Source: Podarcis filfolensis (lineage: Eukaryota). From it: DNA of 64,000 nt. Below, one piece after another: positions 2,206 to 61,503 of the stretch. The stretch is taken from the NCBI GenBank assembly GCA_964270895.1, contig OZ185437.1; one strand, 5' to 3'. The stretch's first letter is position 1; the number at the start of each line of letters is the position of its first letter. A program made the translations under genes and the position numbers. The notes beneath the pieces were generated by a model. The model was not told the DNA's origin, made no database searches, and saw nothing but the letters and a program-made list of their open reading frames with translations.

Positions 2206-4388
2206 GTATTGTTTTCCAGGTTGGGGGGGGAGGGGCGGGCTACACTTTAATATAAATATGTATAGTGTTATGCATTGAGATCAGGTGCCTGACCCCTCTA
2301 ATCCCTGGATCCAGCAAGTGTTAAAAGTTAATTAAACCTTCTAATTCTGGGAAATAGCCAAACTAGCTTCCTGGCGAGGTGATGGGGGATTAAGAGGCTC
2401 AGTGCAAGACAGCAAATGGATCCCTCAACAGAAAAAGGCAGAGTTGTGTCAGGAATGATTGGTGGGTGCTAGAAGAGATAAAACTCGGGGCATCCAGCCA
2501 GTTTTATAGGTTTATTTTGGTCCATTCTTCTATTTACACACAGAGCTCTCAGAGCATTTCCGGCTCATTGGAATCAGATGCAGCAACTGTTTGCTGCTTT
2601 TGTTTTCCCCAGCATAACCACTTCCGGAGCCCTCCCCTTTTCCTTCCTCTGTTACGTGAGGAGCTAAGCCCCAGAAATTGCTCCACCCTCTCTGATTCAT
2701 TGCTTCCTGACAACCCTTCGTCGTCCTCCTCCCCTGATCAGGTACCACTACTAATGATCGAAGGCTTATCTCTGTATTTCCCCATCATTTCCCCCTTCTC
2801 AGCCCCCAGTTCCCTGACAAGTTGGGAGCAGAGGTAGCAATGGTGTAAAAACAGCAAACTGGGAGAGGACAGACAGAGCAATGTTTGGTGCCTGTTTACA
2901 ATCCAATGCTGCAGCTATGGGAGAAACAAGGCCCTCTTGGGGTGTTTACGGATTCGTCTCCTTTATATCCAAAACTCTCCCTTCGTTTTATTGGCCTTCT
3001 TCCACATCACTCCATCATGGAATTTCTCCCACCCCAACAGGACTTTCCTCAAAAGCACCTGCTTTAGTGCATCCTTTCATTAAATATAATGTTACACGCC
3101 ACCCCAAACTCCAGAGCAGTGTGAGATTCCAAGCACAAATTTCCCACCTGGGCCTGTGTTTCATTGGGAAAATGAAGCACGGTGAAGACTGTGGTTTCTT
3201 TATGATATATGGGTTTATTTACACACATATACACACAACTTGAGCCTGCGGGGGGGGGGGGGCGGTCCCCAGCATTACACTCCAAGGGGGTTTTACCTTC
3301 TCCAGAAGCACAGCATTTGATTCAACAGACACTAGCCATTTTTCTCTGCCTCCTACACTTTTGCTTGTCACTGCCATTCCAGAAAGTGGTGGTAGAGGAT
3401 GAGTGTTCAAACCCCTGGGCTCTCACTTGTAGGGTGCCTCAGGGTTCCGTCCTCTCCCCCATGCTTTTTAACATCTACATGCAGCTGCTGGGAGAGATAA
3501 TCAGGGGGTTTGGGCTGGGTGTCCATCAATATGCGGATGATACCCAGCTCTACCTCTCTTTTAAATCAGAACCAGTGAAGGTCCTATGTGAGTGTCTGGA
3601 GGCAGTTGGAGGATAGATGGCAGCTAACGGATTGAGGTTGAATCCTGACAAGGCAGAAGTACTGTTATTGGGGTACAGGGGGCTGGCAGGTGTGGAGGAC
3701 TCCCTGATCCTGAATGGAGTAACTGTGCCCCTGAAGGACCAGGTGCGCAGCCTGGGAAGTCATTTTGGACTCACAGCTGTCCATGGAGGTGCAGGTTAAT
3801 TCTGTGTCCAGGTCCATCTGGTAGGCTGAGACCCTACCTGCCCGCAGACTGTCTTGCCAGAGTGGTCCACCTGGACGACTGCAATGTGCTCTACGTGGGG
3901 CTACGTTTGAAGGTGACCTGGAAACAGCAATTAATCCAGAATGCGGCAGCTAGACTGGTGACTGGGAGTGGCCACCAAGACCATATAACACTGGTCCTGA
4001 AAGATCTTCATTGGCTCCCAGTACATTTCTGAGCACAATTCAAAGTGTTGGTGCTGACCTTTAAAACCCTAAACGGCCTCGGTCCAGTATATCTGAAGGA
4101 GCGTCTCCTCCCCCATCGTTCTGCCCAGACACTGAGGTCCAGTGCTGAGGGCCTTCTGGCACTACCCTCACTGCGAGAAGTGAGGTTACAGGGAACCAGG
4201 CAGAGGGCCTTCTCGGTAGTGGTGCCTGCTCTGTGGAGCACCCTCCCAGCAGATGTCAAGGCAATAAACAACTATTTTACTTTTAAAAGACAACTTTAGG
4301 GAAGTTTTTATTGTCTGATGCTGTATTGTTTTTAATATTTGGTTGGAAGCCGCCACCAACCCAGCAAGATGGGCTGGGTATAAATAAA

Positions 4389-4438
<50 letters not shown>

Positions 4439-7400
4439 CCACTTCACTCTATTTCTGGCCCACATTACTTCCCCTCCCTTCTCTAAGATCTTGGCTTTTA
4501 TCTCTCCAGTCAAAGGGGCTTATTTCTTTGCACTCTATGGTAAGTTTCTTCAATCCCTTATACTGTAGGTGCTAATGACTCATTGCTAACACCTCACTTG
4601 CGGTAGGCCAGTTCTGACTTAATTAGCTCCAACACTTGGATTAATTAAAGGATTAGCAAGATCTAGCATGGCTCAAATACACACTTGATTGATACTAAAT
4701 ACATATGAGTCTGGCCATTTCCTGTCTGATACTCCAGACTTAAATTAAAACCTACCACTAGCTTAATCTGGAATTTAGTGTGTCTTGCACTCCCAGATTC
4801 ATAACAAGAATGTGCTTTAAAAAAACAAAAAACTGCCTTTCATTTGCAGATGACTGGCACTCCAGATGGCATTTACCTAACCAATCCTGTGCAAAGACTT
4901 CTCTCTCCTCCTCCTATGCACCCCACCCCCCAAATAAATTGGGTATGGGAGTCAGGAAAAACCCCTAAACAGCACATAGGTGGTCCATTCCTTTGCTTTT
5001 AACAGGACTGAGAGGTGACTTTTGTTAGCTGGATTGTGCCCATGAAGGGGAAAGTTAATGTGATTCTGAAAGGATCGTTAAAAGTGCCAAAGCAACATTT
5101 CCCTCCTCCTTGTTTTTACTGATGCTTTGTGCCCTTCTGTTCCTTTTCCCCCTTCCTAGACTGTGTCGGTCTCTGTTTCCGTGCTAACCCTGAGTTGCAT
5201 CGCCCTGGATCGATGGTATGCAATTTGTCACCCTTTGATGTTTAAAAGCACAGCCAAGCGGGCCAGGAACAGCATTATCATTATCTGGATTGTCTCCTGC
5301 ATTATAATGATCCCCCAGGCGTTTGTCATGGAGTGCAGCCATGTCTTGCCAGCATTAGCCAACAAAACCATCTTATTCACGGTTTGCGATGAACGCTGGG
5401 GAGGTGAGTATTTTTCACCATGGGACTGGAATTGCCCACATGGACATTATGGAAGGAAAACTATACAGTTAACAAACCCACCTTATCTCCTGAATTATTG
5501 GGTATTGGTTGAAACCAGGACTTTACATGATCTTCTCTGGCACTGGCTTTTAGCTGCCTTTAATCTCTAACTGGATTTCTTAGGTACAAGCAGTAGCAGT
5601 CAGTGAGGTGGAGTGGGTGGGTCAGGATTGCTTGTGTTGTTTCCTATAACTGAGGGGGGGCAAGGTAGGAGGGAGGTCTCTGTGGTGTGGACGCAGCAGC
5701 GGGAGCATCAGATTGGTTCCACCACTGCATTCACACAATGCTGACCTCCTCACTGGCTCCACCCTTCTCCTGTATGTCTCAGTTACCAGAAATGATCTCT
5801 ACATTGCGAAACTAGGGGAGCTGTGCTCCACCCCACTGACCAGCACTGCTGGGTACAAATGTTGGGTACAATGTGGTTACTGTTAAGAGGAAAGCTCTCT
5901 ACAGCCCAGAAGGGTGCCCTTTGACACCTATGTTGGTGTCTGTGTTGGGCCTATATTGTGCCTATGTTGACATAGCTTATGACTTGAAGATGTGAACATA
6001 GAAACATGGGAGGAGTCTGCTGTTTTCACAGGAACTGGTCAGGTGCCTATGGGAAACATGAAAACACTCTCTCCCTCCCAACCACCACCTCATCTGTGAA
6101 TTTCACAGGCCTTTAGATAGCCCAAAATAACCAGAGGTATCACCAGAATAACCAAGGGTAACTGGATACCTTAAGGACTGCCATCTTCCACAAGACCTTG
6201 CAAGCCCATGCATTCAGAGCAGTTTCAGAAGCACATCAGAAGGTGGCATACAAATAAAATGACTGATCATTTGGATGGTCTCTGTGTCTCCCTGCCATTA
6301 GAAGTCAGGTGAAGATAGGGCCTTTTCAATGGTGGCACTCCACCTTTGGAATTCCCTCTCCTAGGAGGTGTGCTTGGGGCCAAGGAGGAACTCTTCTTGG
6401 CTTTGGCATTTTTATTTCCCCAGGCCTTTGGGTTTTTGGTGTGTGGAAGACAGGAGTGCCTGGCATGCTCTGGTCCATGGGGTCACAAAGAGTCGGACAC
6501 AACTAAACGACTTAACAACAACAAATGTATTACTTCTGCTGTTTGCTATGCATTTACTATTTACTTTGTTTTGCTATTGTGGTTTTAATTTACTTTGGAC
6601 TGTCAGGGGATTGAATGATTGGATTCTTCAGCAGCACACACACAAAAGGCACGTTACATATAGAAAAAACAGTATGTGAAGGAAAAGATTGAACCCTTTA
6701 TCCATTTGCTTGGAAGTCAGTCCTGCTGACACCACAGCGACCTCAGCTTTTAAGTCTCCCCTTGCTCCTTATTTCCCGATTGGCCAATCCGAGAGGAAGA
6801 AATTTCTCCATCCCTGCCAGAAGGCGGTGTCAAGCATACTTTCACTTCCCTGGAAGAATATTAGAATTAATTTGCTTTTCAGGCTCCCAGAGATGAGTTC
6901 TGTGAGGAAGCTGAAATGTCTCTACTTTTCCAGTGCTCCATTTTCCAGCTATGGCGGTCAACAAGGTTCAGTTGGTGGCGATACTTAGACCAAAGTCAAT
7001 AATACCTCACAATTTCCTGTTGGGAATGCATGGGACTGGCAACGGGATCCCAACTCAACATGGAACACAACCTAGCAAAAAGGATTTCCCCTTTAGGGGC
7101 ATGCCCTGATTTGCTTGATCATAGTATCACAAAACAGGGTCTGCAGTTACATGATCAGCATGTAGTAACTGTTGGGCCATGAGTTCACCACCAGCCTCAC
7201 ATATGCACAGGCAATCACACAGCTGAATCAAGGCACTGAGAGCCATTCAGCAATTTCACCGATGCTTTAACACAGCACCCAGCAGCTAAGGATTTGGGTT
7301 CCTTGATGACGAAACCTTCAGCTCTCTCACACTCCTACCCACCCTGTCAGTCAGATGTAATAATTGCTACATTGGTGGAATCTTTAGTTCTACTTAAAGC

Positions 7401-8706
7401 ACAAAGGTCCTTAAGCAACTGTTATGTGAAGTATGTGCCCTGGGTTTTCTTTGAAGTTCTGCCTCCAAATGCATCCCCGCCCTGATTGAGACCACTTCAA
7501 AGGAAAAGGCTCGTTCTTCGTCCATCTTGATCCATCATCGACTTGTACACAGCCTGGCAGCTTCTACATTTTTCTCCCTTTTTTTAAAAAGAAAAGAAAA
7601 GCTAAAGATGTTAAATTAGAAGCCATAAACCTCCAATGGTTGTTGAAATAAATGCTGCAATTATACTTGCACTATGCTGCCTGAAGGTCACCGTGCAGGC
7701 AGGTGGTGGCTCTTTATGAGCTTTCTTGAGTCCTGCCGGTTGAGAGCTCAAATACTTAAGATAATGGTAATTTCCCCTGCAGTAAAATTTCAATTACAGT
7801 TCTGGCTCCCTGACACAGCAATGTTTCTTTTCAGACCTAGAAAGTTACTGAACCTTCTTATATATTCGGTGCACTAAGAGAAAAACGACTCCATCTGGTT
7901 CATGTGATACAGATTTACCCAGATAACATCACAGTTGCAGATGCTGGAAACGGGTAATTCATGCATATTTATAGAACCCTTGGGAGATTCACACCATTGA
8001 AGAATTCTGTACAAAGCACTTAAAGCAGGACTACCAACCACCCAGTACTTCACTGGTCTGACCATTAGGAGGTAACAGGCACTGGGCTTCAAAAGCCTGT
8101 GACCTCCCAATTCTGTCTGGCACCACCCCATAACCTGCTATATGTATTGGCTGGCTTTTTCCACAACTCATCAGATTTGCTGTGGCTCAACCCCTTATAT
8201 GCCAGATTCCATCCTAGATCTTCACCTCACAGTTCAATACTTTTCCTGACTCCACAAGGTTCTGACCAGGCTGCAAGTGGTGAAAGTAGAGTGGTAGTCC
8301 AGTCCAGTCCAGTCCAGTGGTAGAGCATCTGCTTTGCATGCAGAAGGTCCTTGGCTCAGTCCTCAACATCTCTAGGTAGAGTTGGAAGAGACCTCCTGTC
8401 TGCAACCCCAGAAAGCTGCTACCAGTCAACATCAACAATACTGTAGATGGACCAGTGGAAGAAAGCTTCCTGTGTTCCTAACAATCCTAGCTGGCCTTCT
8501 GCCCCTTACCCCAGGGGGCCAACAATTTTGGAAATCTAAGCTTCACAACCTTGATTTCAAGGTTGCTCTCCATTGTTTTCTACATCCTCATCTTTTAGCA
8601 AGGTCTTCAGGCGATGGCGTAACCAATGCCTTTGGATGGCTAGGTGCTTCCAAATGCTTCTGAACATTAGTTTAGCAATCTTGTCAGCTGCAAAGTCAAA
8701 GGGATT

Positions 8707-8757
<51 letters not shown>

Positions 8758-10727: not shown

Positions 10728-10774
<47 letters not shown>

Positions 10775-13700
10775 CTCTGGGCCAGTGAGCCTAACAGATT
10801 TTCCCTTTGGGCAAATGGAAATAATTAACATTCCCTTTACTATGCTCTGCTAGATTCCAGGAACTTCATCTGTGATTCAGAGAAAGTGGAAGCCTCTGCA
10901 ATCCACAGCACAAACCCAAAGGCAGAAGCCATCGGCAAATTTCAGGATTAGTGCTGTGGCAGCCGAAATCAAACAAATCCAAACCCGGAGGAAAACAGCA
11001 CGTATGCTCATGGTCGTTCTCTTGGTTTTTGCCCTCTGCTATCTCCCAATTAGCATTCTCAATGTATTAAAAAGGTAACCTTAATACACAATGAGTAATA
11101 ATATGCATCTGTGTGTGATTTTCTAGTCTTTAGGTAGCAGGATGATTCCATTTTGCAGCTGACTAGCCCTATAGCAAAATTAGCATTTGTTTGTTTGTTT
11201 GTTTATCAACTGCCAAGTCAAAAAATATACAATAAAATAATTGGAACATAAAACTTTAAAATCATAAAGTCACAAACAAATGGTCAACAGTGACTCAGAT
11301 CTCTACAAAGTCTCAGGCAGAAATCCTTTCCAGTTCTGTCATGTGAAATCCTTATTTGCTGAAGATGTTGGAGACTGAACCTCGAACGTTCAGTGGACAA
11401 GAAATGAGCTTGAGCAATGAGTTATGGCCCGACCCTGGTATTAGCTTGTGGTTTTTAATTTTGCAGAAAGGCAGGCAAAACTGGAGCTGATGTGAACATG
11501 GCTGGCTTGACTAGTTGTCAACACAGTTGAGCAAGAAGTGTGGAAACACCTCTCTGCTCCTTCAGCTGCTGCTTAAGGCTCAGAAGCAGAGGAGAAGGAG
11601 AAAAGAGGCAGGGTGGTAGAACCTGCTTGAAGAACCAAAGGGTTCTGACCACAGCAAGCCCATGCTTGACATCTTGCAAGAGGCAACATTGGGAACAATC
11701 AAGAACTGCAGGATACACTTAAAGGCACTAGAGGGCACTCCAGTCTTAGGGACTTGAGTGAAGGGGCTTAGGTGAGTTTAGTGTTTCTCTGTAAACAGGA
11801 AATTAGAGCACAAGCAAATATTAATGTTGTCTCAGTGATAAGCCAGGTTCAAGAAAGAATAAGGAAAATAACAGAACTAGAGTATGCACACCCAGCAGAG
11901 GAGTGCAGCCTTGTACTGTGAGGGCAACCAAAGTAGCAAGATTCCACGTAACTTCTTGTCTCTAAGCAGGTCTCCTTGATCAGGGCTAGTGTGGTAAGGA
12001 CCAACATTTGCCTGGTCCAAGACCAGAACAACCCTTGTTCCCCCATCAGCACCACCATTCTCACTTTACACAGAGCATTCAGGCCAGAGGTGACCGGAAA
12101 TATTTCTCAGTGTGTGGTTATCTGAATCAAGGTGTGCGGTAAACTTTAGAAGTCACTTATAAAATTTGCACTCCCTTGGAGAACACGCACAGGCCCTTTC
12201 CTTTAATAATAATGAAAACACTGTGTCCTTGTGGTCCTCTGCATTTTGAGATACATATTCTGTGTACAAATCTTTCAAACTGAAAGCTAATTTGAGATTT
12301 AATCAGATTTCTAATGTCTTCTCATTTCTTCTCTTTTTGTAAGGGTGTTTGGGATGTTCAACAATGCCAATGACAGAGAAACAGTGTATGCCTGGTTTAC
12401 ATTCTCCCACTGGCTTGTATATGCAAATAGTGCAGCAAACCCAATTATTTATAACTTCCTCAGTGGTAAGTCGTTCAGTTCTGCTGCCTTTTATCAATGC
12501 CCCCCCTCCCCGCATGGTTTAGCTACACAGCTCAGAACTACTAGAAGTCTTTCATTCACTGTAATGGGCTCGAGCCCATGGAACTCTTTCCCAACTGAGA
12601 TTAGGCAGCCACCCTCCTTGTTACACTCCAGGCATGTGGCCAAGCCCTTTTTGTTCCAGCATTTTAAGACAGTGTTCCGTCTAACGATTAAAAAAAGGAA
12701 AAAGTTTTATTGCCCCATTGCTTTGTGTTCACCACTTAGGAATTTTGAACAATTACGCAGTATAGAAATGTCTTAAATAAAAAAAACAGTAAATAAATGA
12801 GCCTTTGGGCTTCCCTTATCTTCTTGTTGGGGGGTGGGAATATTTTGTGCCTCCAATTGGCTTCCCTGCTTTGAGTTTCAGGCTGATGCGTAATTTCCTA
12901 TCAGACTATCTGCTGGTGGCTGCCTGAGGGGGTTATGCTTGCACACTACCCTTGCTGCCAACATCAGGACAAGACAGATGAACTCCCTGTCTCTACTGGG
13001 TTTACTGGTAGAACATGAGACTCTTAATCTCAGTGTTGTGGGTTTGAGTCCCACATTGGGCGAAAGGTACCTGCACTGCCAGGGGGTTAGACTAGACGGT
13101 CCTTGTAGTCCCTTCCAACTCTATATTCTCTTCGCTACATGTGCCATGAATCCACCCATTTAACCAAGAGGGGGAATAATACTATGATTTTGCAATGAAC
13201 AGGTTTTTAATGAAGCTATGTCATTATCTCTTTGGGGTTTACCCTATGGTTACCAGATTTTTTCCAATGAATCCAGGGACCCCCCCTTTTTTTTTTGAAG
13301 CTGAGTAGCAACAGGGAGCCAGTAGTGGGGATGGTGAGGCAAAAGACCCTGGGCCCAAGCACACATGCATATTGCATAAAGGTGCAAAGCCCTTCTTTCC
13401 CACCCCGTGAAACATAAATGCACAGAGTTTTTTAAAAATTGGGCAACACCCCCCACCCCCAGCTCCCGAGCCTCCCCCGATCAGTCAAAACAAAGGGGGA
13501 AGGAGATCTGTACCGCCGGACGTCCCCGGTTCCCCTTTGGCAGTGGCAGCAGCAGCAGTCAGCAGCCCGGAGCCAGCCTGGTAGGGCTCTGGCTCTGGCT
13601 GGCTTCAGGAGCTGCTCATGGTCGTGACGCCCGCCATTTTTCCTCTCTAGAAGTCCCCATATGATGCACTGCACACAAGACACATCACATGGGGACTTCC

Positions 13701-14603: not shown

Positions 14604-14609
14604 AATAAA
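14604..14609 (+). terminator. Candidate HCRTR2 polyadenylation signal
   Basis: AATAAA about 245 nt after the stop codon, followed by GT-rich sequence; use is unverified. Confidence 0.4.
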
Positions 14610-16739: not shown

Positions 16740-19700
16740 GTAAGTTCTGCAGAGTTCTTCCTCGTGGAACCCAATCCTATACACGCTTACTCTGAAGTAA
16801 GTCGCACTGTGTTCACTGGGGCTTGTTCTGAATTAAGTGTGCCTATGGGACCGCAGTCTCATCTGCTTGTTGGAGGGCACAGAATTGGACATTGCATATG
16901 GTCCCTACCACTTATTGGACTGCTCCCTCCTATTGTATGCAATATAAAGGACAGACTTTGTACTCACACATTTGCTATAAGTTAAACTTTATTTTCCTCC
17001 TTCTCTGCTCCTCTCCTATTCAAACATAATAAACTTGTTGAAATGGCAGCTGCTTTGTTTGCTTTTAGAAACTTTGCTTTTAGTCTTTGTGACTGTAAAG
17101 GGGAACTATTTTCTTTAAAAAATATATAAGCAATGTGCTAATTTAGAGCTCTGTGGTCCTCAGACGAAGGGTGGAATAAAAATTAAATATATAAAAGTGA
17201 AGAAATGAATATGATCAAATAAAGGTCTGTAGTGAGGAGGGCAGTTTCCTATCCCACCACAGCCCACTGTTCTTAGCATGAGCGATTTTGTTCAGTAGAT
17301 TCAGATAGCCACCTATTCTTATTCTTATTCTTATTTTCAATTTTATACATTTCAATAATTTTACAATAATTTCAACATTTCAAAACTTGACTTCCTTCCC
17401 CCTCTTTCTGTGGTTCCTTAAATTTGTTTTTAATATTTTCTGCATATCCAAATTAACTTAATTTGCTCATTTATTCATCTACTATAAATATATACTCTTA
17501 TAAAACTGCAGGTTATTACAATAATCCTGCCAATGTTCCTATCTGTTTACAGTTTATTTGTAAATATTCAATAAACCATTTCCATTCTTTTATAAAAAGT
17601 CTGTTTTCTAATAAGTTTTGCCATTTCTGCATATTCCATAAGTTTTTTTATCCATTCTTCTTTTGCTGGGACTTTTTCTTCTTTCCATTTTTGGGCAAGT
17701 AACATTCATGCCACTGTTGTTGCATACATGAATAAATTTCTATACAGTTTGGGTAGTTCTGTCCCTATAATTCCCAAAAGGAAGGCTTCTGGTCTTTTTA
17801 CAAATGTTATTTTAAACATCTTTTTCAACTCATTATATATCATTTCCCAGTAAGCTTTAACCTTACTACAGGACCACCACATATGATAAAAAGAACCTTC
17901 TTCCTCTTTTGTCAATTAACTCAGTGTTAGGTACCATCAATATATCATTTTCATATAATTTTCTCTTAGACCGTAAAGTAAAGAGACCCCTGACCATTAG
18001 GTCCAGTCATGACCGACTTTGGGGTTGCGGCGCTCATCTCGCTTTATTGGCCGAGGGAGCTGGCATGTGGCCAGCATTACTAAGCCGCTTCTGGTGAACC
18101 AGAGCAGTGCACAGAAATGCCATTTACCTTCCCGCTGGAGCGGTACCTATTTATCTACATGCACTTTGACGTGCTTTCGAACTGCTAGGTTGGCAGGAGC
18201 AGGGACCGAGCAACGGGAGCTCACCCCTTTGCAGGGATTCGAACCGCTGACCTTCTGATCGGCAAATCCTAGGCTCAGTGGTTTAGACCACAGCGCCACC
18301 CGTGTCCCATTCTTAGACCAGAGCATGCTGTAAAATTATATCCATATTCCATATCGTTCCCATGCTTCCACATTTATATTATATTATGACCAATATCTAT
18401 TGCCCAATGTATCATTGAGTCAGATAGCCAGACTTTATCCCCAATTAAATTGACATTTGCAGTTACTAAGAAAATGTAATCGAAGTGAGATGACTGAAGG
18501 ACCACATAGCTGTCACATGGCTGACCAGTCTCTACGACCATATTGCAGAGCAAAACTTCATTCAGATTTCTATTACCAGTGGGAATGTATTGTGTACTGG
18601 GATGCAAAACTGTTTGTCTGACTCAGCCCATTCTGTCCCATCTCTTTAGCAGTGTGTTGCTCCTTCTTTTGTGCCCAAGGTTACTAGTGCTCTGTGGAAC
18701 ATGGCTAATCCTTTAAATGCTCATGACTGTTGACGCTTCATGAGTCGCGTGGCTTTCTTGTTCCCAGAGGCAATGTGTGATTGGAACATTTTTCATGCAC
18801 TCCTGGCATGGCTGGAAAAGAGCAAGCTGTTGAAGAGCAGGTGCCAGCTTCACACTAAAATGCTATCTCTATGGTGGTAGATATTTAATTTTATTTCATT
18901 GATTGCCAAGAGTGACACCTAGCCAATGTATTTAGGCTTGAGTGATGACCCGTTCCAGTCCGTAAGCAGTACAGTGGCAGATCACCCTAAAGGTACTATG
19001 AAAGGTAACTTATCAAGTAGATCTGAAAAAGGGAGGTTTTGTTTAAACAAACACATGCTTGTTTGCTGAGTGGAACGTCTAAGTGCATGTCAGGCCACAA
19101 GAAAAGCTATTGTTACTACTGTTGACTTTTCCCTTTGGCTTGAGATAGGTAGGTGAGAGGAGGAACAGAGAAGCAGGCCTATAGGAAGCTGCAGAACATG
19201 AATAAGATGTTCCCATAATACCCACTTTTTTCAATCCCATTATTTTTACTTATTAACTCTAATCTTCTGAGGAAGAGGAAGAGATCCATTTCACACAGCT
19301 GTCTTTGTTGCTTCCTGATGAAACTGCAATTGCAAGATGACAGCTGAGAGAGTGGAGAAGTCAGATGGAACTGCTGGCTTCCTGCTGCTGTTGCCTGATG
19401 TAATAGCTAGTAGACCTGCACCTCAGCACTCAAAGTCCCATTGTTTGCAGTGGGACTTTTAAGAGTGCTGTCTGTGCAATGCATTATATCTGCTTCATCT
19501 CCCCAAGCACCAAAATCTTAATGGACATATTAACAGCAGAACCTTCCACGTAGCTAGGCTTACTAGAGGCATGAATTGCAAGCTGGTTTGAGCCCTAGAA
19601 AAGCTCATTTTAGAACCTGTGCTCTCTACAAGTTAGCTTGGATGTATACAATATAACAACACATGTTGTCAGGGGCTCAGGAGCAGGAGCACAGGGGAGA

Positions 19701-20835
19701 GAGGAAATGGAGAACGAAGGGGAAGAATCCGAGGGCAGCGTAGGGGAGTATGACAGTGGCCCGAGAGATTCCATGAGCTTCTCCAGCGAATCAGAAGATT
19801 CCCAGAAGGGGGCGCCGACGGTCAGGGCAAGGGGGGTCCCAGGGGGGACGCACCAGAAACAAGGAGCCAGTGGGGAACCCCAAAGCAGCAGCGGGGGATC
19901 AGGACCAGTTTCCCCACCAGAGCGTAGTGGGGGGGAAGAGTCACATGTGTCAGGGCCAGCGTCTCCTCCAGCGGGGAGAGAAAGTGATTCAGGGCTGACC
20001 ACGCCTCCAACGGAGGGGAGGTCAGTTGCAGCTAGCCCCCCCAGAGGGGGAAGCAGTGACAGCAGCAGTGAAACAGTCAGGAGGAAAGCTGCTGGCTGGG
20101 CGCGCGCGCCAAGTTCAAATGTACAGGCGCGGGGGACAGCAGGAGACCCGGATGGGGAACCAGCTCCTAAAGCCCTCCGGAGGGAGGGGGAAGGCTCAGG
20201 GGATTCAGCGTCAGAAGAGTCTAGAAAGGGCGAGACCCCAACGGACAGGCAGAACCAGAGGCGGAAAGAACAGAGGAAGAGGTGGAGTAAGGCTAGAGTC
20301 TTAAATTGGTGTCTGGGGGAGCATCAGCGGTCTGAGAGTTGAGACGTAGAGACGCTGCGGCTCTGGAAGTGAAACTGAACTTCAATAAAGACTTTTGTAC
20401 TTAACAACGAAGCAGCGTTGGTCCTTTGTGAGCTGGGACCTCGGGCGGCTCTGACACATGTGCATATATATATATATATATATAAAGGTAAAGGTACCCC
20501 TGCCCGTACGGGCCAGTCTTGACAGACTCTAGGGTTGTGCGCTCATCTCACTCTATAGGCCGGGAGCCAGCGCTGTCCGCAGACACTTCCGGGTCACGTG
20601 GCCAGCGTGACAAGCTGCATCTGGCGAGCCAGCACAGCACACGGAACGCCGTTTACCTTCCCGCTGGTAAGCGGTTCCTATTTATCTACTTGCACCCGGG
20701 GGTGCTTTCGAACTGCTAGGTTGGCAGGCGCTGGGACCGAACTACGGGAGTGCACCCCGCCGCGGGGATTCGAACCGCCGACCATGCGATCAGCAAGTCC
20801 TAGGCGCTGAGGTTTTACCCACAGCGCTACCCGCG

Positions 20836-23800: not shown

Positions 23801-26800
23801 CTGATCTTTCTCCTGGAGGCCAGATGTTAACACAAAAAGTGAAAAGATAGGGGTGGGTTGGCACTTATATTTTCAACAAGTGTCTGAGTCTTTTAAAAAA
23901 GCAAAAACTAAAATGTCCCCCTGAGCAAGTACATTTTGCATCCTTTCCAAATGCAACCAAGAGGCCACAAAGCAAGTGATGCAGTATGAAACAGCATCTT
24001 TCAGGATGGTGTCCATGACATGGGTATTTTGAGTGAGAAAACCACCACTTCATGTGTTTGCCATCAGTAGTCACATAGTAAAATGGTAGTCACATAGAAA
24101 AACGTGATAGTAAAAAAACAGCAACCAAAATGTTCCACACTTCAGGTAACAGTGCAGCAACTTCCCCCCACATTTTTTTTAAAAGTAATCCCTCTTAGAT
24201 ACACACAGCACATTTACTGATAATTGGAAACTGTTGAGAAAATACTTAATGGAGAGAGTGTTTGATCATCCACAGAAGAAGTACATATACACCGTTCCAC
24301 TTTCCAGTTCAGCAGACAGGACTGAACACGCAGAGAGCTCTTTCTTAAAAGCTACACCCAAGGAATATGCTAGCCCAGAGGTGGAGTGTGGGGTTGAATC
24401 AATAGGATTTTAACTTTGAAAAAGAAAATGGGGGCATCTACACGTACGTACTCACAGGGACATGTTCTGTCGGAGTGTTCTTAATTTGTGGTGGTCTAGG
24501 GTTTTATAGACTAGAGATGACTTCATCCAGTGAAATGGTACCTAGTCCATGAAAGCTTTTGAGCCACTCAAATTTCAAGCCTTTAAGGTGCTACGGGATT
24601 CCTTTCATACAAACTACTTCATACCGTAGTTTATATTGGGTCACAATGTTTATTCCCACTAGACCCATTGAAGTGAATGCCCATGACTAATCAGGTCCAT
24701 TCATTTCAATGGGTCTAGTCCGAGTAAAAGTTAGTTGAAAAGGCAAGATATAAATAAATAGATATAATAACATTAATGAAAGTATTAAGACTCATTCTTG
24801 CATTTGAAATCCAGGCAACAACTACACAGTAAAAGATTCAACCAACTGTAATAAAACAGTCAAGTTCTTAGTTGACCAGTTCCCAGAATTTAAAGACTGC
24901 ACCTGCACTAACGATAACTGCAGCACTACAGCGTTGCTTGGCAAGCAATGTTTTGGGAATAAAGGTAACAGATTATTTTCTTCTCTAGAACAAAATAATG
25001 TAGTGTAATCATGGCCCTGATAAGGCTATTAACAGCTGCTAGAAATGGGAGCCGTATGGTACTTTGAGGATCAGAGGCTCTCAGCCATTTGCTGGGGAAT
25101 GATTGAGGGAGAGGTCATGTCTTGCTTGCATGATGGACATGGGCATCTGGGTTACCACTGGGGGAAGAAGGATGCTGAGCTTTGGTCTGATGCAGCAGAG
25201 CTCTTGTTATGCTCTTATGTTCATTATGGCTTAGAGGTTTAGCTTTGACAAACTATCGGATTCAAATATTATATGGATCTTCGACCTCTAATTAGGAGAC
25301 TGTGACTTTCCTAAGCAATTATAGTAGTCACCGGAGTCCAAAATTCAAGACAAATAAAGTACCATTCAAATCCAGACAAAACCAGTGGATTATTCCCTTC
25401 TCCCCAAGAACCCCCCACACTCAGCTTTTCAGGTTTTTCAGGGGGGCACAGGAAGCTGCAAGAGGGGAGAGGAGGGGAGGGGGACTTCCTTCCATGAACT
25501 TCCCTTAGGATCCAAGCCAATTCATCAACCTTTTAAGACCAGCAATGAACCCTGCAAAATGACAGGGTTATGGACTCCAGCTACCATCTTGATTAACATA
25601 AAAAAGCAGAGAGGAAAAGACTAGTCTTCAATTAATATCTGAAGGAAGAAAAAGTGAGAGCTAAGAGCACACCACGAGGCATAATTCCACCCTTAGGTGC
25701 TGCTGTAGAGAAGGTTCTATCCTGGATCAGCCTCACAAATAGGCAGAGTGAGGCATTCGCCTCAGACAGCAGATGCTTAAAAATGCAGTAAGGACAGAAA
25801 CGTGTGTTTCGCATGACCAGTCCTGCACTCCCATAGCTAGCCTGCTATCTTCAGGTGTAGTGCGGAGGACAGTGTCAAAAGTCAGATTCATTTTCCAGTT
25901 TAGTTGGCTTTTTGTAAATATCATCCTCCGCTTCAGGCAGCAAAATATCTTGGGTTGGCCCTGGTACCATCCCAAATAATCATTTGGGGGGAAATAAAAG
26001 CACAATTCATGTAGCTGCTCCTTTGCTTATCAGTTTTTACAGTCAGCCTGATTGCATTTGAAAGATGCAGCCGTGAGCATGATCTATCCTACTGACTTTG
26101 CGCGCAAATTCTCTTTTGCACAGGGAAATCGAAGCTTTACATGAGCACAGATGTCCAGTTAGGATTCCTGCCACAGACAAAATTGCAAGAGACGGTGCAC
26201 CCAGGCATGTTAGGAACCGACTGCGCGGTTGCAAAGGAAATATGCCGAGGAGATGACACCTGTTTCTTGCCGTACAAGAAATTCCAGAGAATGTGCAGAA
26301 CCAAAGTAGCAAACTGTAGCCTCCATGTGGTGGTACAGCAATGCCTCACAGCATGGAAGGAGTTAAGGAGAACAGTCCTGGGGAGCTGCATATGCCCAGA
26401 ACCACTGCATAAAAGATGCACTAAAATATGGAAGCATATATTTAACAACACATGCGTACAATACACCCAGGAATACCAAGCTTCTGCCATTCAGGAGGAA
26501 ACCTATGCAGGCTTTGATGCAGGTAAATGATGAAGAGTGATCTCTTCAATAACACCAGTTCAAAGATACTGTTCCTAGCAACCTTGAAATGAATAGGTTT
26601 GATGGCACAAAGCGCCACTTTTTACATTTTAATTTAAAAAAAATGCAGAAAAACTGGTGGTGGGTTGGGTTGGGGTTCTCCCTGTTGACACCACTGCCCA
26701 CAAATCCAAGCCCGAAGTTATCATGCTTATACGGAGTCCCAGTGACCTCTGTGTGCATTGCTTACAGGTTCTCATGCATAAGACTGGACTGCTGAAATCG

Positions 26801-29800
26801 ACGTGACTTGCTTCTGTGCAAATATGTGTCAAGTTGTGGCATCACAACTAACTTCTGCTGCATTGTTCTCAAGGTCTTCCATGCAGGATCAAACATAGTC
26901 AGCCACAATGTGGCAGGAAACACCCTAGAATCCTACAAGAGATGTAGAGATGGCCACTAACTTGGACAGGAGTAGATACATCCATGGAAGATCAGGAGCC
27001 ACGAGCCGTGAAGTCTGTGTTCCACCTCCAGTGTTGGAGGATGTAACCAAGTGGATTGGTTACATTTTCCTTCAAAATTATAGGAAGGGCTTTGTATGCC
27101 AGCTTCCTTCATTTGGTGCAAGTATTTTATTTTTGGTATAAACAGGACTCTGTTTTTGCACCTACAGACACACAAACACACACCAAAGGTTTCTGTTTCC
27201 AAAAAGGACAAAGGGGTAGTCTGATCTCTCCAGCACTTATAATTGCTCTCCAAGACATAGAGGGAAGGAAAAGGGAAAACCTGGACATTCTGGGGTCAAA
27301 TCAGAAACCAAGATGGCTCCTGTAACTCTGGGACTGTCCCTGGAAAATTGGGACACTTCGAGGGTATGTCATAGGCAACTGGTTGGGCATGGATAGAACA
27401 GATTGCAGGAACAGATTGGTCTTTGGCCCGATGCAGAAGGGCTTTCTCATGTTCTTGCGTTAATCCATTCTTTTTATAGATAATTTTGTTGCCTCAGCTA
27501 GATACCTCCTCAAATAACCATTGAATCTGGACTGTGTACCTAAGCCCAAAGACAGAGAGTTATTTGCCTTCCCTCTGTTTTTAATTCCACGTTGCTGTAG
27601 CTCGCTGTAGCTCAAACATCATTTACTCAGTTATGTTGTTACTCCTATGTTTGGATTTCTTCTAGGCAATTCAGATAAAATTGAAGCTGATGTGTAAATG
27701 CTAAGAGGAAACAGCAGGTGCAGGAGTCAGCAATTGACATGAACAACACTTGTCCCAACACTTGCAGCTGTTGCATTATGCAATCAGTGCATGTGAGTCA
27801 ATATCAGACAATGCTTTAAATTCATATGGTTTGCATCTATTCTCCTGCCCTGTTCACTGAATCAGGAGCTATGGCAAGCTACAGTTCCCATCCATCCCAA
27901 TGGCAATGCTCAGAAGTGTTTAGCCTTTAAAAATGAAACATAAAAGGCCTCATCTGACCATGCAAACAACATGAACAAAGATGGTAGGGAGATCATCTTT
28001 GCTGCCACCAGCAGAAACCAGCAGGTAACAGTCTGGTGTCTGCAGTCTATGGAGGACCCCTCCCCATCCATGGGTCCTATCAGCTGTCTGAATATACTGA
28101 TTACTGACACCAAGCCTGGTGAAAAGGTAAGGTTGATGTTACTCTGTGCTCCACACTCCAACGTTGTCTTTGGCTATTGGGGTTGATGGAAGCTGGAGTC
28201 AAACAACATGAGCCCCACCTTTGCTCTAAACTAGGAATGCCTCTGCTAAAGGCCGTCAAATAACCTGATCATCATTTTTTTCTTAGCGTTGGGTTTCATT
28301 GCAAACTGCTGCTTCCATTTCAAATCTGCAATTAATTTACAACATGTAATCCGTATAATATGTATCTCCTTCGTTGTAGATCACCTGAAAATAAAATCAC
28401 AGTGGAAGTCATCGTCTCTTTCAAACTATGGTAAACATTAGCCTACTTTTTAAACATTTCTATACCCTGTATCGATTTCAGCTTTGTGGCCCACATAAAT
28501 TATGAGTAATCCAGCTTCCTGACCCCGTGCAGAATGAGACACTGCAAGCTCATTGCAAGAGCTGGAAACCGTGATGGGCTAGGGAAAGTTACAAGGGCTA
28601 AACTGAGAGGTCTGGAGGGCCATATTAAGCCCCCAGGCCTGAAGTTCACCACCCCAATGTATGACAGAATGAATGTTTTTTTCAGAAAATGCAAATAGAA
28701 ATGGGTTGCCTATAGTAGAGTGACCACCATGTAAAAAATTCAAGGGAGAGTTGGAGAACTATTGTGCTTGCAAAATCACTCCTCGTACCCCTATCTCTAT
28801 CGTCTTGTGAACACTTTGCTGTTTCCTCAGAATACAAACACCTGCGCTCCTGCTTCCAAGTCAAAGTGGACTGTGTCAATGACGGAGTCTGTAACAGACA
28901 ACTATCTCGCTACCTTCAAGCCTGCCAAGCTAATGCAACACAGTGCAATTGGAATCGATGCCAAGCAGCTCTGCGGTCCTTCTATGAAAACATGCCTTTG
29001 AACGTAGCCCTGCTGTTGACCTTTTGTGATTGCATGCCGTCAGATGAAAACTGCCGCCAAGCCAAGGGATTCCTTCATGGCACACTATGTGGAGTCAATA
29101 TGGTCCCAGCTCCTTCATGCCTCAGTGTAATTGACACATGCCAAAGAAACGAGATCTGCTGGTAAGTGGAAATACACATTTTTGGTTGACTGCTGGCACA
29201 TGTGTGTTTAATATAAAAATGCACAAGGAGCCCAAGATGATCTCTTATTTATTTGCTCATTCACAATGCACCAAATAATGTTTGCTTTCCAACCTACACC
29301 ACAAGCAAAAGCTGTAAGAGGGTTTTTCTGTGATTTAAGCCTTCCTCCTAACCATCTCTGTCATTCAGGAAATTCATATAGATCTTTTGCAGGACATGTA
29401 CATTTTAACTGTTATTGAATATGCACCCTATAATCCAATCACTGCAAGGTGGTCAAACCGGCAGATATTGCACTTTAAGACTGTGTTACCCCCAAGGCTG
29501 GTCATGGGACTTGGTGCTTTTTAGTAGCATTTTCATCCTGGTCCTGGAGATACTCAGCGGAGTAAAGGATTTGGGATCTTAGCAGGAGCTTCAGAAGGCT
29601 GATACACTCTTCCCTGCTGCTGATACCTCTCCTGCTGTTCCTGTTGCCTCTCCAATGACATAACTCTAATGCTAAAGCACATGAGCACATCTACACAGAT
29701 GTAAAAATAATCAATATGCATAATTTAACATAGAGGTGCATACAGATTAACACTGAAAACACTGCAGGCAAATAAAGCCATAGGAGATGACAGGACTGGG

Positions 29801-41498: not shown

Positions 41499-41980
41499 TG
41501 TCAGGGACTGGGCAGAGGAAGAATGGTGGAGACCACCTCCTCAGCCTGACGCTTCCAGAGAAGAAGAAGACAGTTCAGAATTACAACAGGCATTTGAGGG
41601 AGGTCACAGATCAGAGACAGATGAGGGGGAAAGTTGGGAAATAATGGGAGAGGAGGAAGAAGAAGCACCAGAGGGGCTGACGGACACAGTGTCTTTAGAA
41701 AGCATTCCAAACTCCCCCTCTCCCAGAAGCCGGCAGGCATTGAAAGTAGGAGAGCAGAAAGCTCAGAGGCAGAGGGCACTTCTCAGCACCTGTAGTGATG
41801 ACACATGAAGGGAGAGAGGGAGGAGGTGGAGACTCACTCAGGGCAACGCCATTACTCCAAGAGGCTGCATTTCTAAGCCTCTCTCTGTGAATATTGAATA
41901 AATAGCATTGGTAAGAACTGTCCTTGTCTTATCCGTTCCCGGCTACCTGCTTGGGGGGTTGGATCCTCTGACACCTGACA
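41499..41980 (+). mobile_element. Solo Ty3/gypsy LTR (LTR-C, 482 bp) in the last HMGCLL1 intron, antisense to the gene
   Basis: TGTCAGGG...CCTGACA; AATAAA in the 3' part; TSD CCTCC/CTTCC (4 of 5); the 3' end is confirmed by the related fragment at 49816-49935. Confidence 0.85.
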
Positions 41981-45127: not shown

Positions 45128-45189
45128 TGATGATGATCATGATGATGATGATGATGATGATGATGGTGATGATGGTGGTGATGATGATA
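45128..45189. repeat. (GAT)n/(GGT)n microsatellite
   Basis: Direct read. Confidence 0.9.
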
Positions 45190-49815: not shown

Positions 49816-49935
49816 TGTCAGGAAGAAGAGGAACCAACCCCCAAGGCAGGTTGCCAGGAACGGATAAGACAAGGAAAACTCATTACCACCTGCTTTTTAT
49901 TCAATATTCACAGAGAGAGGCTTGGGAACTGTAGA
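49816..49935 (-). mobile_element. 3' fragment of an LTR-C-family LTR
   Basis: Reverse complement AAGCCTCTCTCTGTGAATATTGAATAAA...CCTTGTCTTATCCGTTCC...GGGGGTTGG...CCTGACA matches 41876-41980. Confidence 0.85.
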
Positions 49936-51218: not shown

Positions 51219-51601
51219 AGGTAAGGTAAAGGCAAAGGACCCCTGGATGAGTAAGTCCAGTCAAAGGCGACTATGGGGTTGCAGCACTCATCTTGTTTTC
51301 AGGCCGAGGGAGCCGGCGTTTGTCCACAGACAGCTTTCCGGGTCATGTGGCCAGCAGGACTAAACCGCTTCTGGCACAACGGGACACCATGATGGAAACC
51401 AGAGCACACGGAAATGCCGTTTACCTTCCCGCTGGAGCGGTACCTGTTTATCTACTTGTACTGGTGTGCTTTCAAACTGCTAGATTGACAGGAGCTGGGA
51501 CAAAGCAACGGGAGCTCACTCCATTGTGGGGATTTGAACCACCGACCTTCTGATCGGCAAGCCCAAGAGGCTCAGTGGTTTAGACCACAGCACCACCCAT
51601 G
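51219..51601 (+). mobile_element. Sauria SINE
   Basis: Typical body; 15-bp TSD TCCCCAGAAGGAATA (51204-51218, 51602-51616). Confidence 0.95.
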
Positions 51602-53865: not shown

Positions 53866-55527
53866 CATAGCTGTCAACTTACAGATTTGAAAATAAGGGA
53901 CCAGCAGCCTCGAAAATAAGGGATCAGCTCACCACTAGAGGTAATGAGTGTAAAGAAAATCAATATGAGAGGGAATTGGATTACCTATGGAGAGTTAGTA
54001 ATTAAAGAGGGGGGGGAATGGAAAATGAAGCCATATGAACAAGTTAAAGATCATGTCTATGATCGGTTGCATTATCTTCAGGTAAATGAAATGTTTAAAA
54101 AGGACCTTAAAGAGAGGGGATATATAGAGAAAGAATCGAAATTTCAAACAGAGATAATTGACAATGATGTTAAGACAATGTCAAAAATGTACAAAATACT
54201 TTTGGAATGGCAAACGAAAGATGAGGAGATAAAGTCGGTTATGATACATCGGGCCAGAGATTTTGGTTATAATATACAGTTGGCTGATTGGGAAAAAGTA
54301 TGGAATGAAAATATGAAATTTACTGCATGTATGGCGTTAAAGGAGAATATTATGAAAATGGTATACAGATGGTATATTACACCCGTAAAGTTAGCAAAAA
54401 TGTTCAAAACATGTAACAAGTGTTGGAAATGTAAAGAAAAAGAAGGATCATTTTTTCATATGTGGTGGGAATGTAAGAGGGTAAAGGGTTTCTGGGAAAT
54501 GATATATAATGAGTTGAAAAAGATGTTTAAATACACGTTTGTAAAAAAACCAGAAGCCTTTTTGTTAGGAATAACAGGAAGAGAGATAAATAGAAGTGAT
54601 CACAAACTTTTTCAGTATGCAGTAACAGCGGCAAGAATATTAATGGCCCAAAAATGGAAACAAGAGGAACTACCGACCTTGAATGAGTGGAGTATGAAAC
54701 TTATGGACTATGCAGAATTGGATAAAATGACTGGAAAAATCAGATATCAGAAAGATCACAAATTCATCGAGGACTGGGGAAAGTTCACGGATTATCTGAA
54801 AACTATCTGTGATGAACAGACAACGCTAGTGGGTTTTAAGGAGGCTTTGTGATAGTATAAGGTATATTGTAAAAAAGAAATAGAGATGGAAAGATAATAT
54901 TAAATTGGCAATATCATATAGAAAATGCGTGAAGATAAGAAAAATGGATGATTGAGGGATGTGCTGGTGGAAGTTCAAAAACAGGAAATTTGTAAACATG
55001 GTTGTATGGATTTATTTGTAAAGGAAAAGCTTAATAAAAATTTATAAAACTGAAAATAAGGGATCAGCAGCCAAAATAAGGGATTTTCAGAGCACAGGTA
55101 TGTTCAGCTTCTGAGCCCCTCTGAGCCAAAGGCAGAAAGCCCAGCCAGCAGCCAAACGAAGCCTCAAGCGGTGGTTCCCACAGCGCAGCAACCCGGCAAA
55201 GGGGATGCAGCAAGGAAAACCACTGTCACCTCTCCGCTGGGAATTGCTGAGCAAAGGCGAGTCCCCAGGCAACACGGCCGATTTGCTCGGCACAAGGCAT
55301 GCAAGCTCCATCCCCCAGTCATTCTTAGACTCCTTATTGGGTGAGCAACGCAGCCAAGCAACACAGTTGGAGCCTCCTTCCTCCCTGGCCGGCAGGGAGG
55401 GAGGGAGAGGAGCTGCTTCCTTTGAAACCCGGGAAATTTAAGGGACATCATCAATAAGGGACAGCAGTGGGACACAGCGCTGGGATAAGGGACTTTCCCG
55501 CCAAATAAGGGACGGTTGACAGCTATG
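53866..55527. mobile_element. Non-autonomous hAT element (about 520 bp of own sequence) carrying a nested L1
   Basis: Perfect 13-bp TIR CATAGCTGTCAAC / GTTGACAGCTATG; perfect 8-bp TSD GGCCGTTG (53858-53865, 55528-55535); repeated subterminal ATAAGGGA(C/T). Confidence 0.93.
53929..55051 (+). mobile_element. Young 5'-truncated L1/Tx1-type LINE (ORF2 C-terminal 302 codons open, 53944-54852)
   Basis: CNKCWKCKEKEGSFFHMWWEC zinc-binding region, PEAFLLGI, AARILMAQKWK; AATAAA and A-rich tail; 17-bp TSD GAAAATAAGGGATCAGC (53912-53928, 55052-55068). Confidence 0.93.
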
Positions 55528-58500: not shown

Positions 58501-58925
58501 GAGCTTATGCAGGTACATTGCAGCCAAACACATACAACTAAGGGAGCCCCTTTTAAAGGGCTGGGTAACAAAAAGACTTTTCAGAGAAGTCACAACCCTT
58601 TCTTGTCTACCATTTTATCTCTCGAAAGAAAGAAAGAAAGGACAGATGGATGGAAGGATGGATGGAAGGAAGGAAGGAAGGAAGGAAGGAAGGAAGGGAA
58701 GAGCTGTTTACTATAGCTTTTCAGAAGTGTGCATTGTTCAACTCTGGAGAAAGTATACTTTTGTCAGGCCAAGTGCAAAGTTGTAATGTGCCCCAACTCC
58801 TACAATCCTGTTTTGAAAAAGTGGAGGACTGACTTTTGCCCTTCCACTTTTTCCCATTTTCTTTAGGCACTTTTCCCCATTTTCTTTAGGCATTTCTAGG
58901 TACCCACATTGTATTCCTAGTCACT

Positions 58926-59210
58926 GAAGAAGAAGAAGAAGAAGAAGAAGAAGAAGAAGAAGAAGAAGAAGAAGAGTTTGGATTTGATATCCCACCTTTC
59001 ACTCCCTTTAAGGAGTCTCAAAGCGGCTAACATTCTCCTTTCCCTTCCTCCCCCACAACAAACACTCTGTGAGGTGAGTGGGGCTGAGAGACTTCAAAGA
59101 AGTGTGACTGGCCCAAGGTCACCCAGCAGCTGCATGTAGAGGAGTGGAGACGCGAACTCGGTTCCCCAGATTACGAGACTACCGCTCTTAACCACTACAC
59201 CACACTGGCT
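58926..59210 (-). mobile_element. tRNA-derived SINE with (CTT)n tail (same family as 14793-15038)
   Basis: Reverse complement of the 14793 copy; (GAA)n at 58926-58975. Confidence 0.88.
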
Positions 59211-59382
59211 CTCTCTGCATTCTCATTCTTCTACTTATAGCTATCTTGCCCCTGGGGACTTCCCCGCTTGACTCCTATTTTGTAGGAGCATCATCCACTC
59301 AGTTTCTACTGGTCCACAGCTTCCTTTACTATACCCAACTCCTGTTTTCAAGGTCAATTTTTGGATTGCCTCACAGTTAATC

Positions 59383-59391
59383 TCATCTATC

Positions 59392-59422
<31 letters not shown>

Positions 59423-59456
59423 ATCATCATCATATATCTATCTTATCTATCTATCT
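59383..59456. repeat. Imperfect (ATCT)n microsatellite
   Basis: Direct read. Confidence 0.85.
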
Positions 59457-61095
59457 CTCCACCCATCCACCTCAATCTCCAAAGCTAGTCTGTTTAGGTC
59501 AGGTATTCTGGAAGGTTCCATTCCCTCACAATTTAGACATTGCAGCTCAATTAACGGCCATCTAGGATTCCCCACTGCCATATTTTGACTCAGCCATAGA
59601 TAGCACGATGCACATTGCCTTTCATAGTTGTTCATCACTGCAATCACACTGCCAGAAAACAACACACATAAGACCTCTTTGGGCATTCAGTCTGTACATG
59701 TGAGGGGGGGAATATGTTCCAGCCCTTGACCCCCTATGCTTCTGGGTGTGTCAGGGGAATCCACTCCACCTCGACCTTCCCACATTGAGCTGGAAGGTCT
59801 TCTAAGCACACATGGCTGAACACACTTTGAAGTCTTTGGGGGAAGGGCTGAAGTTCAGTGGTAGAGCACGTCCTTGGGATGCAAAAGGTCTCAGGTTCAA
59901 TGTCCCAGTTGCAGGAAGACTGCTAAGCATATTCAGCCAGTTCCCATCAGATTTCTGTGCTGAACATGTCAAGACTGGCACTGGAGGGGGCAGCGTTGAC
60001 ATATGGCCCCTGCTCCACTATATACCTTTCCCCTCATGTGTTCATGAACATCTTAAGAGGGCTACAATATCCTGCATTTATTTTTTTAACATGTTGCTAT
60101 GAAAACTTATAGAACAGAGCTAAGATCTTCAGAAAGAAATGCGGTTCTGTTAGGGAAAATGCTTGGAGTATCCGAGTTAATGAATTCTACAGGCTTTGGG
60201 GTTTTTTTGTTTTTAAGTCTCCTTTATCCACATGCAGATTAATTCCTGTCTTTCTAAGTTAAGAGGCACCACAAATGTGCACTTTGAAACTAGTTAGCGT
60301 CAGACTCTGACTGTTGCAGTCAGTAGCAAATGTCGGAATAAAACCCACGTCCCCATCGTTTCGTTTGGAATTATAATTTAACAGCACTCTGCCTAAAAGG
60401 AAGCATGTCTAATATATTAGTGAGTTTTCATATAGTAAAGCTCGGGCAATTCATCATGCAGCAGGTTTTCAATACGACAATTCAGTAGTCACCAGCTGGG
60501 ACCAGAAAAAAATATTTTCCTGAGGACATTTCCAATTTCCACTTTTCCTAAAGCCTTGGAAATGGCACTTAAAGTAGCAATATATTATGATATGATGCAG
60601 AGTGGTACTGAAGAAACTTCTATATTTGTTGCTAGACGGCTGGGTTACTCTTGAACTGTTAAGAGTCTAACAGTACAATCAATCCCATGCAGAGCATCTA
60701 AGTCACTAGACTGCAGCCAACTCGGCTACAGATTCATTTGCAATGTTTGGGTGCAAGATGCTTGGTAGTGAATAAAGTGAAGAAGCACACAGAAAGGCAT
60801 AAACAAATCAAATAGTCCATATTGTATGCATAATAATTCACAGCTTGCTATATTTTGCACCAGCCCATGGTGTTCTATCCATTTCTGTCCACTTTTGCGA
60901 TCTTTTCCCGTTATATATTTTTCTACATGTGCAACTGAACTCCTTGTTTTCGAAGAAGATTGCGGACAAATATGTATAGCGTGCCCATCAATGACAGCCA
61001 CCCACAGATTGATGCAGTACAGAAATGTGCGACTCGCTTTAAGCTATAGCATGTGATCCTCAGCTCATGACTTACACCTGGCCTGGACCCAACCC

Positions 61096-61503
61096 TGTCA
61101 GGGAACTGTCATCTGAGACGAAGGAGGTGAAAGGGCTCATGGAGGGTGAGAGAGACCACTCAGCGGAGGAGGGGACCAGCAGGGGGAGAAGTGGAGCTCC
61201 AAGGGAAAGTGAGTCGGAGGGAGGGCTCAGAGACACTTCAAGCGAGAACAGTGGGGAGGTTTCAGGACCTCCCGTAGGGACACCCACTCCTCGGCGGAAA
61301 CTGTCACGCCGAGAGTCCAGAAGATGCGTTTCCGTTAAGGAGCTTTTATGCTGGAAGAAGTTCCGTAAACGCCCACTGTCCGATTCAACGAGCGATTGAT
61401 GGAGCCATGCTTAAGGAGCTCCATCACAGACAGAGGTTTGGGAACTTAGCCAAACTCTGAGGGATCAGGATTTTACGCACAAGCAGCTCACCATCCCATC
61501 ACA
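61096..61503 (+). mobile_element. 5' LTR (LTR-D, about 408 bp)
   Basis: Starts TGTCAGGG and ends ...ATCACA just before the PBS. The 3' boundary is inferred because the second LTR is outside the window. Confidence 0.75.

Follow-up and report, generated by a model that had tools for sequence, protein, structure and literature searches.

The open frame that runs through the U3 of four LTRs in a 64,000-nucleotide stretch of Podarcis filfolensis DNA (the window) is, judged from its sequence, no accessory gene in its own right but the terminal part of pol. As no stop codon interrupts pol upstream of the 3' LTR, U3 is both promoter DNA and coding sequence. The explanation that best accounts for the whole, to which we give a probability of about 0.7, is that the tail of a chromovirus Pol is encoded through U3 and has been kept as a disordered arm of the integrase. 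The elements would be lacertid Tf1/sushi-type chromoviruses with such an unstopped pol frame. Their tail would be produced only within frameshifted Gag-Pol and would be retained by the integrase as a disordered arm, in which the length of the linker may be free and short motifs that bind host proteins may be fixed.

The four LTRs of the original prediction were found again with the same positions, lengths and reading frames, and the Trp (W) of the L-x-W motif proved to lie at the codons predicted for A, B and D (Table 1). LTR-B of the window is 20 nt shorter than most copies of its family, and because of this its last codons are unlike those of family B, in which the frame usually comprises 227 codons. 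The target duplication of LTR-C is 5 bp long with one mismatch. The 3' LTR of the D element is situated just outside the window (G000:C3:33794170-33794577), and one base differs between the two LTRs of this element. Its gag has a frameshift within a run of G near 61739-61747. Beyond the window its pol continues with RNase H, integrase, SH3, chromodomain and tail, and ends at codon 100 of the 3' LTR. Translation of the D frame would take place solely from this 3' copy, as the end of Pol. The nearest named proteins were those of Podarcis muralis (62-85% identity). The window also contains SINEs, which we take to be of the Sauria type.

Table 1. Positions of the LTRs, the U3 frame and the internal genes of the D element in the window
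Feature	Position	Strand	Remarks
LTR-A	2447..2819	-	Solo LTR, 5-bp target duplication
A frame (U3 copy of Pol C-terminal frame)	2549..2818	-	89 codons with one TGA, private to this copy (2738-2740)
A motif W	2609-2611	-	Codon 70
LTR-B	19667..20456	+	Solo LTR, target duplication CATGT
B frame (U3 copy of Pol C-terminal frame)	19668..20342	+	224 codons
B motif W	20307-20309	+	Codon 214
LTR-C	41499..41980	+	Older solo LTR, diverged by about 12-15% from other copies
C frame (U3 copy of Pol C-terminal frame)	41500..41808	+	102 codons, without L-x-W
Second family-C LTR	49816..49923	-	3'-end fragment
LTR-D	61096..61503	+	5' LTR of young full-length element of 5.5 kb
D frame (U3)	61097..61399	+	100 codons; motif W is codon 86 (61352-61354)
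First 11 nt of transcript (self-primer), inferred	61375..61385	+	Complementary to 61506-61516
Self-priming primer-binding site	61506..61516	+	
gag	61547..62553	+	Retrotrans_gag, Ty3_capsid, zinc knuckle
Start of pol frame	62349..64000	+	Protease and RT inside window; 1374 codons in full

Full-length relatives of all four families had the same order, i.e. integrase, chromodomain, acidic tail, polypurine tract and then the 3' LTR in the phase that reads GTC AGG after the first T (the T-GTC-AGG frame). The C-terminal 84-230 residues of Pol are encoded by U3. The acidic tail between the chromodomain and the tract measures about 15 residues in C, 90-105 in A and D, and 160 in B; in the D element of the window a 90-residue acidic tail is followed by the tract and by 100 codons of the 3' LTR. 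For family D, 464-500 open codons were present upstream in 9/9 3'-LTR loci (among 20 loci). The integrase motif of family B was in the same open frame at 17 of the 30 junction loci, and read-through was seen at several of the 17 junction loci of family A (including L136, L137, L138 and L140). For family C the chromodomain was in phase, about 15 residues upstream, in 4/14 candidate loci, all four of them decayed. This chromodomain scored 46-57% to protein P0021 versus 35-37% to the D-type protein and C is therefore a separate lineage. The sequence TGTCAG also occurs inside the tail, and was set apart from the true LTR start when junctions were called. In a check that did not depend on the junction, the best 40 of 69 integrase matches were chosen without regard to it, all of them D-type. 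In this set 31 junctions were in phase, 20 of which remained open as far as the terminal W; the remaining nine had a shift of one or two bases, and the G runs before the LTR vary in length. The whole tail is present in the Podarcis muralis proteins P0004, P0006 and P0008. Automatic protein annotations already include it. Read-in from the internal region, which had been put forward as the second of two routes of expression, was thus seen at loci of A, B, C and D. The solo LTRs and the 5' LTRs can be seen to hold the frame as a passive copy.

The domain order of the D element (gag, then PR-RT-RH-IN) is that of a Tf1/sushi chromovirus. A chromodomain follows the integrase SH3/GPF region; it is called by Pfam in D (Chromo, 5.9e-9) and could be aligned in A and C. 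That of B aligns as well, but is degenerate and received no Pfam call. Named profile matches were Tf2-like proteins of lizards, snakes, frogs and fish. In D, A and B a complement of 11-12 nt to the sequence just 3' of the 5' LTR was found inside the LTR. It likely marks the start of the transcript and fits the self-priming described for the Tf1/sushi group (PMC6317226). For C such a complement was not found: the predicted pattern matched 13 sites, none of which was a C LTR. In D, A and B the stop codon follows the inferred start by 21-22 nt, so the frame would span all of U3 and end early in R; in A and B this stop precedes AATAAA by about 50 nt. The features that were compared (domain order, chromodomain, and self-priming in D, A and B) appear to be those of the Tf1/sushi group. 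The V-clade elements of fish and amphibians share with the lizard elements the domain order, the SH3 and chromodomain, and self-priming. They differ from them in tail length, which is several-fold greater in the lacertids, and in that the lacertid tails are first acidic and then basic, occupy all of U3 and have another motif at their end.

The original prediction of a wholly new system did not hold, as the CRM group A elements of plants already encode an integrase targeting motif in the 3' LTR. In this group the 3' LTR is described to contain the last part of the polyprotein frame, which encodes the integrase C-terminus; a motif there is conserved while the sequence around it varies (PMC3059260, PMC3605345, PMC6317226). 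This is the closest known case, as the lizard elements extend their polyprotein frame into the 3' LTR likewise. CRM elements have the CR motif in place of a chromodomain, whereas the lizard elements keep a chromodomain upstream (degenerate in B); CRM is primed by tRNA-Met, whereas the lizard elements have the self-complement after the 5' LTR. Furthermore, CRM is centromeric, and in the lizard elements the whole U3 is coding. With their chromodomain kept and their self-priming, the lizard elements are not members of CRM. An LTR-coded integrase end being already known in plants, the lizard case extends a known design. In a literature search that covered mostly freely accessible papers, no account was found of a Pol tail that is encoded in U3 and under selection in vertebrates, sushi-type elements included. 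In an HMM study of sushi LTRs the word ORF is absent (PMC3601003).

The +1 frame is open in the four LTRs of the window over the lengths given in Table 1. In base-composition shuffles the chance of such an open frame per LTR was 0.03 for A, 0.0005 for B, 0.007 for C and 0.011 for D. Among other copies (24 A, 24 B, 24 C and 19 D), the T-GTC-AGG frame did not contain a single codon position at which the majority has a stop, versus 1-10 such positions in each of the other two frames, which agrees with the predicted depletion of stops. The TGA of the window A copy corresponds to Ser in 24/24 other A copies, encoded by four different codons.

The substitutions in this frame show purifying selection on the peptide in A, B and D, which is strongest in the terminal motif. 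In frame-blind DNA alignments of seven subfamily pairs (hand-picked intact copies that are not fully independent), pN/pS was 0.47 (95% CI 0.40-0.57) in the variable part of U3 and 0.35 (0.26-0.46) in the last 38 codons, compared with 0.97-1.21 in the shifted frames. Silent changes amounted to 142/362 and 85/174 in the two U3 segments. A spectrum-matched null in which only new stops were forbidden, so that the frame was kept open, gave means of 102 and 53, and reached the observed number in 0/2000 draws for both segments. With codon-aligned pairs of intact copies, dN/dS was 0-0.24 in the last 39 codons wherever it was defined, and 0.06-0.68 in the rest of U3. The synonymous sites of the last 39 codons were diverged about as much as those of the integrase core (the core values of L169 were left out, its integrase core having an internal frame change). 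The ratio expected for a coding frame, below 1 here and about 1 in the other frames, was thus obtained for A, B and D.

Length changes mostly kept the phase. The motif W was in phase in 46/49 D, 43/52 B and 17/25 A copies, and 11 of the 15 length classes were in phase (p=0.002), while in family B the offset of the motif Trp ranges from 151 to 655 nt and the number of U3 codons from 64 to 232. All seven subfamily pairs differed in length by multiples of three, a result that is circular as intact copies had been chosen. The predicted excess of indels in multiples of three was borne out by the length classes but hardly by a gap-by-gap test, in which shared coding gaps were multiples of three in 7/12 cases in B, 3/11 in A and 3/13 in C; this test is noisy and weak, leaves out the longer D subfamilies and suffers from the poor alignment of C. 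The proposal that the frame is phase-locked and coding proved right.

In a structure prediction the SH3 and chromodomain were folded, and residues 168-343 had almost entirely a pLDDT below 50. The tail is probably disordered, as had been supposed for the product of the frame, although low pLDDT from an alignment of eight rows lends this weak support. At the Pol end of A, B and D a polybasic stretch precedes the motif hydrophobic-Leu-(Cys/Asn)-Trp, which lies about 15 residues from the stop; the L-x-W motif was not found in C. A fifth family, represented by P0012, has a basic stretch and LLCW at its end after 101 codons, and a Vipera latastei protein has a tail that is acidic and then basic. 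In fish proteins (Labeo, Hemibagrus) the polypurine tract is apparently crossed in the same phase and Pol apparently stops 17-26 codons into the LTR, the junction being inferred from the protein only. An SPx[FY] ending, 17-44 residues past the tract, was present in 10/149 profile matches. With the tract crossed and the stop reached early in fish, read-in looks ancestral in the Tf1/sushi group and expanded in squamates. No Pfam family was matched by the U3 peptide of B or C, a protein search with that of C gave no match (which is weak evidence), and an Atlas search with the D tail gave no usable match.

Among the explanations that compete with a retained integrase arm, the one that survives best is that the terminal motif, lipidated or amphipathic, would anchor Gag-Pol particles to a membrane and would not be a nuclear or chromatin tether. 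Palmitoylated polybasic anchors resemble such a combination of basic residues and Cys, and a Cys adjoins the motif Trp next to the polybasic stretch in A, D and P0012 (LCW) and, on the opposite side of the Trp, in B (NWC). We regard this as doubtful, since family C and the fish-type tails do not contain such a Cys motif and a long hydrophobic segment is absent. Somewhat more doubtful still is that the tail is cut off by the element protease, and that a small U3-coded accessory protein acts alone. This would partly rescue the accessory protein of the original prediction. Pol polyproteins are generally processed by the protease, and the tail is long, probably unstructured and provided with a conserved terminal motif of its own. 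Against release, a cleavage site was not identified, and the C-terminal motifs of CRM and Ty1 are described to work as part of the integrase (PMC3059260, PMC10050235).

It is improbable that only the openness of the frame matters and that the peptide is neutral. The position of the stop, early in R and close to the poly(A) signal, would leave a very short 3' UTR and could in this manner avoid decay. The null in which nothing but an open frame was maintained was rejected in both U3 segments, which largely refutes this possibility, and fish-type Pol appears to stop far earlier in the LTR.

Even less probable is a separate gene that starts at an ATG in U3 or is expressed by splicing, as had been proposed in the first place. 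HIV nef and MMTV sag also overlap the U3 of the 3' LTR, but as genes of their own that are expressed from spliced RNAs. The lizard frame, in contrast, completes pol and lacks a conserved start codon. The reported in-frame ATG at codons 11-15 does exist in the A, B and D copies of the window; it is not conserved in the families. An ATG within the first 30 codons was missing in 27/50 D-type and 28/55 B-type LTRs and in each of the 17 B loci at which integrase read-through is intact, and L183, L188 and L126 do not have a Met anywhere in the U3 frame. Moreover, continuity with pol alone accounts for the phase. None of seven skipping joints of the D element had GT..AG ends in four contig sets with a small word share that were presumed to be RNA, a count that is uninformative.

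The notion that L-x-W is the by-product of a TATA-like element at -30 and that purine richness keeps the frame open can be dismissed, for although in A, B and D the Leu codon precedes the inferred start by 28-30 nt, and B0 and B1 have TTAAAT there, this codon switches synonymously (TTA, CTT or CTA in D; TTA, CTA, CTC or CTT, plus Ile and Val variants, in A; TTA AAT versus TTG AAC in B), the synonymous sites around it are no better preserved than those of the integrase core, and the other two frames are closed despite the same composition. This implies that L-x-W is a protein motif and not a TATA box, contrary to the caveat that accompanied the prediction.

Returning to the integrase arm, we lean slightly towards nuclear import of the integration complex, its tethering to chromatin, or both, as the main job of the tail. 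Membrane or particle association is an unlikely main job, nucleic-acid chaperoning rather less likely than that, and some other job would be surprising. The C-terminal motif of MLV integrase reportedly binds the ET domain of BET proteins. To our knowledge, the tether motifs of Ty1 and MLV are not encoded in U3. In Ty1 the C-terminal 16 residues of the integrase are described as the Pol III tether, which binds AC40/AC19 (PMC10050235). The lizard tail would resemble these in having, at the extreme C-terminus of the integrase, a short motif that binds a host factor. Young D copies were dispersed over many chromosomes without an evident target. B junctions cluster at contig ends, where several share flanks and are duplications, and young copies were dispersed; targeting to chromosome ends is unsupported.

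The tail before the LTR contains one or two acidic F/L-x-G-F motifs, which are conserved in A, B, D and P0012. In the partners of LEDGF/HRP2 the TND-interacting motifs are described as an acidic linker with FxGF (PMC9987994). The resemblance is a pattern match only, and the lizard motifs are situated upstream of the LTR and not in U3. The host TND domain itself is split over exons. A tentative and on balance unlikely extension is that in squamate sushi-type chromoviruses the whole U3 would be a disordered integrase arm with two host-like docking motifs: the acidic FxGF (for elongation factors of the LEDGF/HRP2 type) upstream of the LTR and, as the last part of the arm, a new basic-hydrophobic-Cys/Trp motif. 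The arm would then be an independently arisen counterpart of the plant CR motif. If this were true, thousands of lizard LTRs would be under codon constraint, and the insertion preference of each family would be written in its promoter.

The U3 of an LTR is usually read as fast-evolving regulatory DNA. In several lizard gypsy families the whole U3, up to 680 nt, is selected coding sequence as well, which changes how the evolution of LTR length and sequence is to be modelled. It also points to a short new motif at the end of the integrase of a vertebrate chromovirus. How vertebrate chromoviruses reach the nucleus and select their sites has been little studied, and a peptide of 40 residues makes both testable.

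The longest tail of Pol, i.e. its C-terminus after the integrase chromodomain, was found among the four lacertid families in family B (loci L119 and L116), where the chromodomain is degenerate and did not give a Pfam call. This is loosely parallel to the situation in the plant chromovirus clade CRM, in which the chromodomain is replaced. The acidic F/L-x-G-F motifs of the internal tail resemble, as judged from their sequence, LEDGF/HRP2-binding motifs.

An acidic LSGF motif was also present in four diverged Pol-like proteins that are annotated in Zootoca vivipara (including P0148, P0160 and P0161), and their junction is of the same kind as in the four families. These proteins are probably decayed copies from a related family. 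The fish-type Pol proteins P0027, P0041, P0057, P0118 and P0134 have an SPx[FY] terminus, situated 17-26 residues beyond the apparent LTR start. Some other fish-type Pol proteins contain RRSxR[LI], which is reminiscent of nucleosome-binding motifs.

Coordinates of the motifs, the broken LTR and other genes and repeats
Feature	Position	Strand	Remarks
Acidic F/L-x-G-F motifs	L096:4800-5170		Internal tail; equivalents in families A and B and in Pol protein P0012
Family-B 3' LTR (L102)	G000:C1:3633	minus	Interrupted at about nt 363
LINE-type RT fragment	window 3206-3613	+	Pfam RVT_1
Rhodopsin-family GPCR gene, exons	window 5160-5567 and 12315-12773	+	
Two exons with GDNF/GAS1 domains	window 26096-26527 and 28719-29162	+	
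310-codon frame	window 53920-54852	+	

Within the window, the exons with GDNF/GAS1 domains probably belong to a GDNF-family receptor gene, and the 310-codon frame, which had no match in Pfam, resembles the 3'-terminal part of ORF2 from an L1-type element.

The broken family-B 3' LTR at L102 is directly adjoined by a TTAGGG-type telomere repeat of >1 kb. The first 0.51 Mb of this contig, C1, holds 13 of the 42 junction matches listed for it, several of which have flanks in common. Two family-B elements, L099 and L101, each contain a nested copia-like element; because their 3' flanks are in common, they are probably duplicates of each other. Contig C19 holds 13 of the 17 family-A junctions and numerous integrase matches. 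This concentration suggests that C19 is a low-recombination chromosome, such as the W, that would have retained full-length elements.
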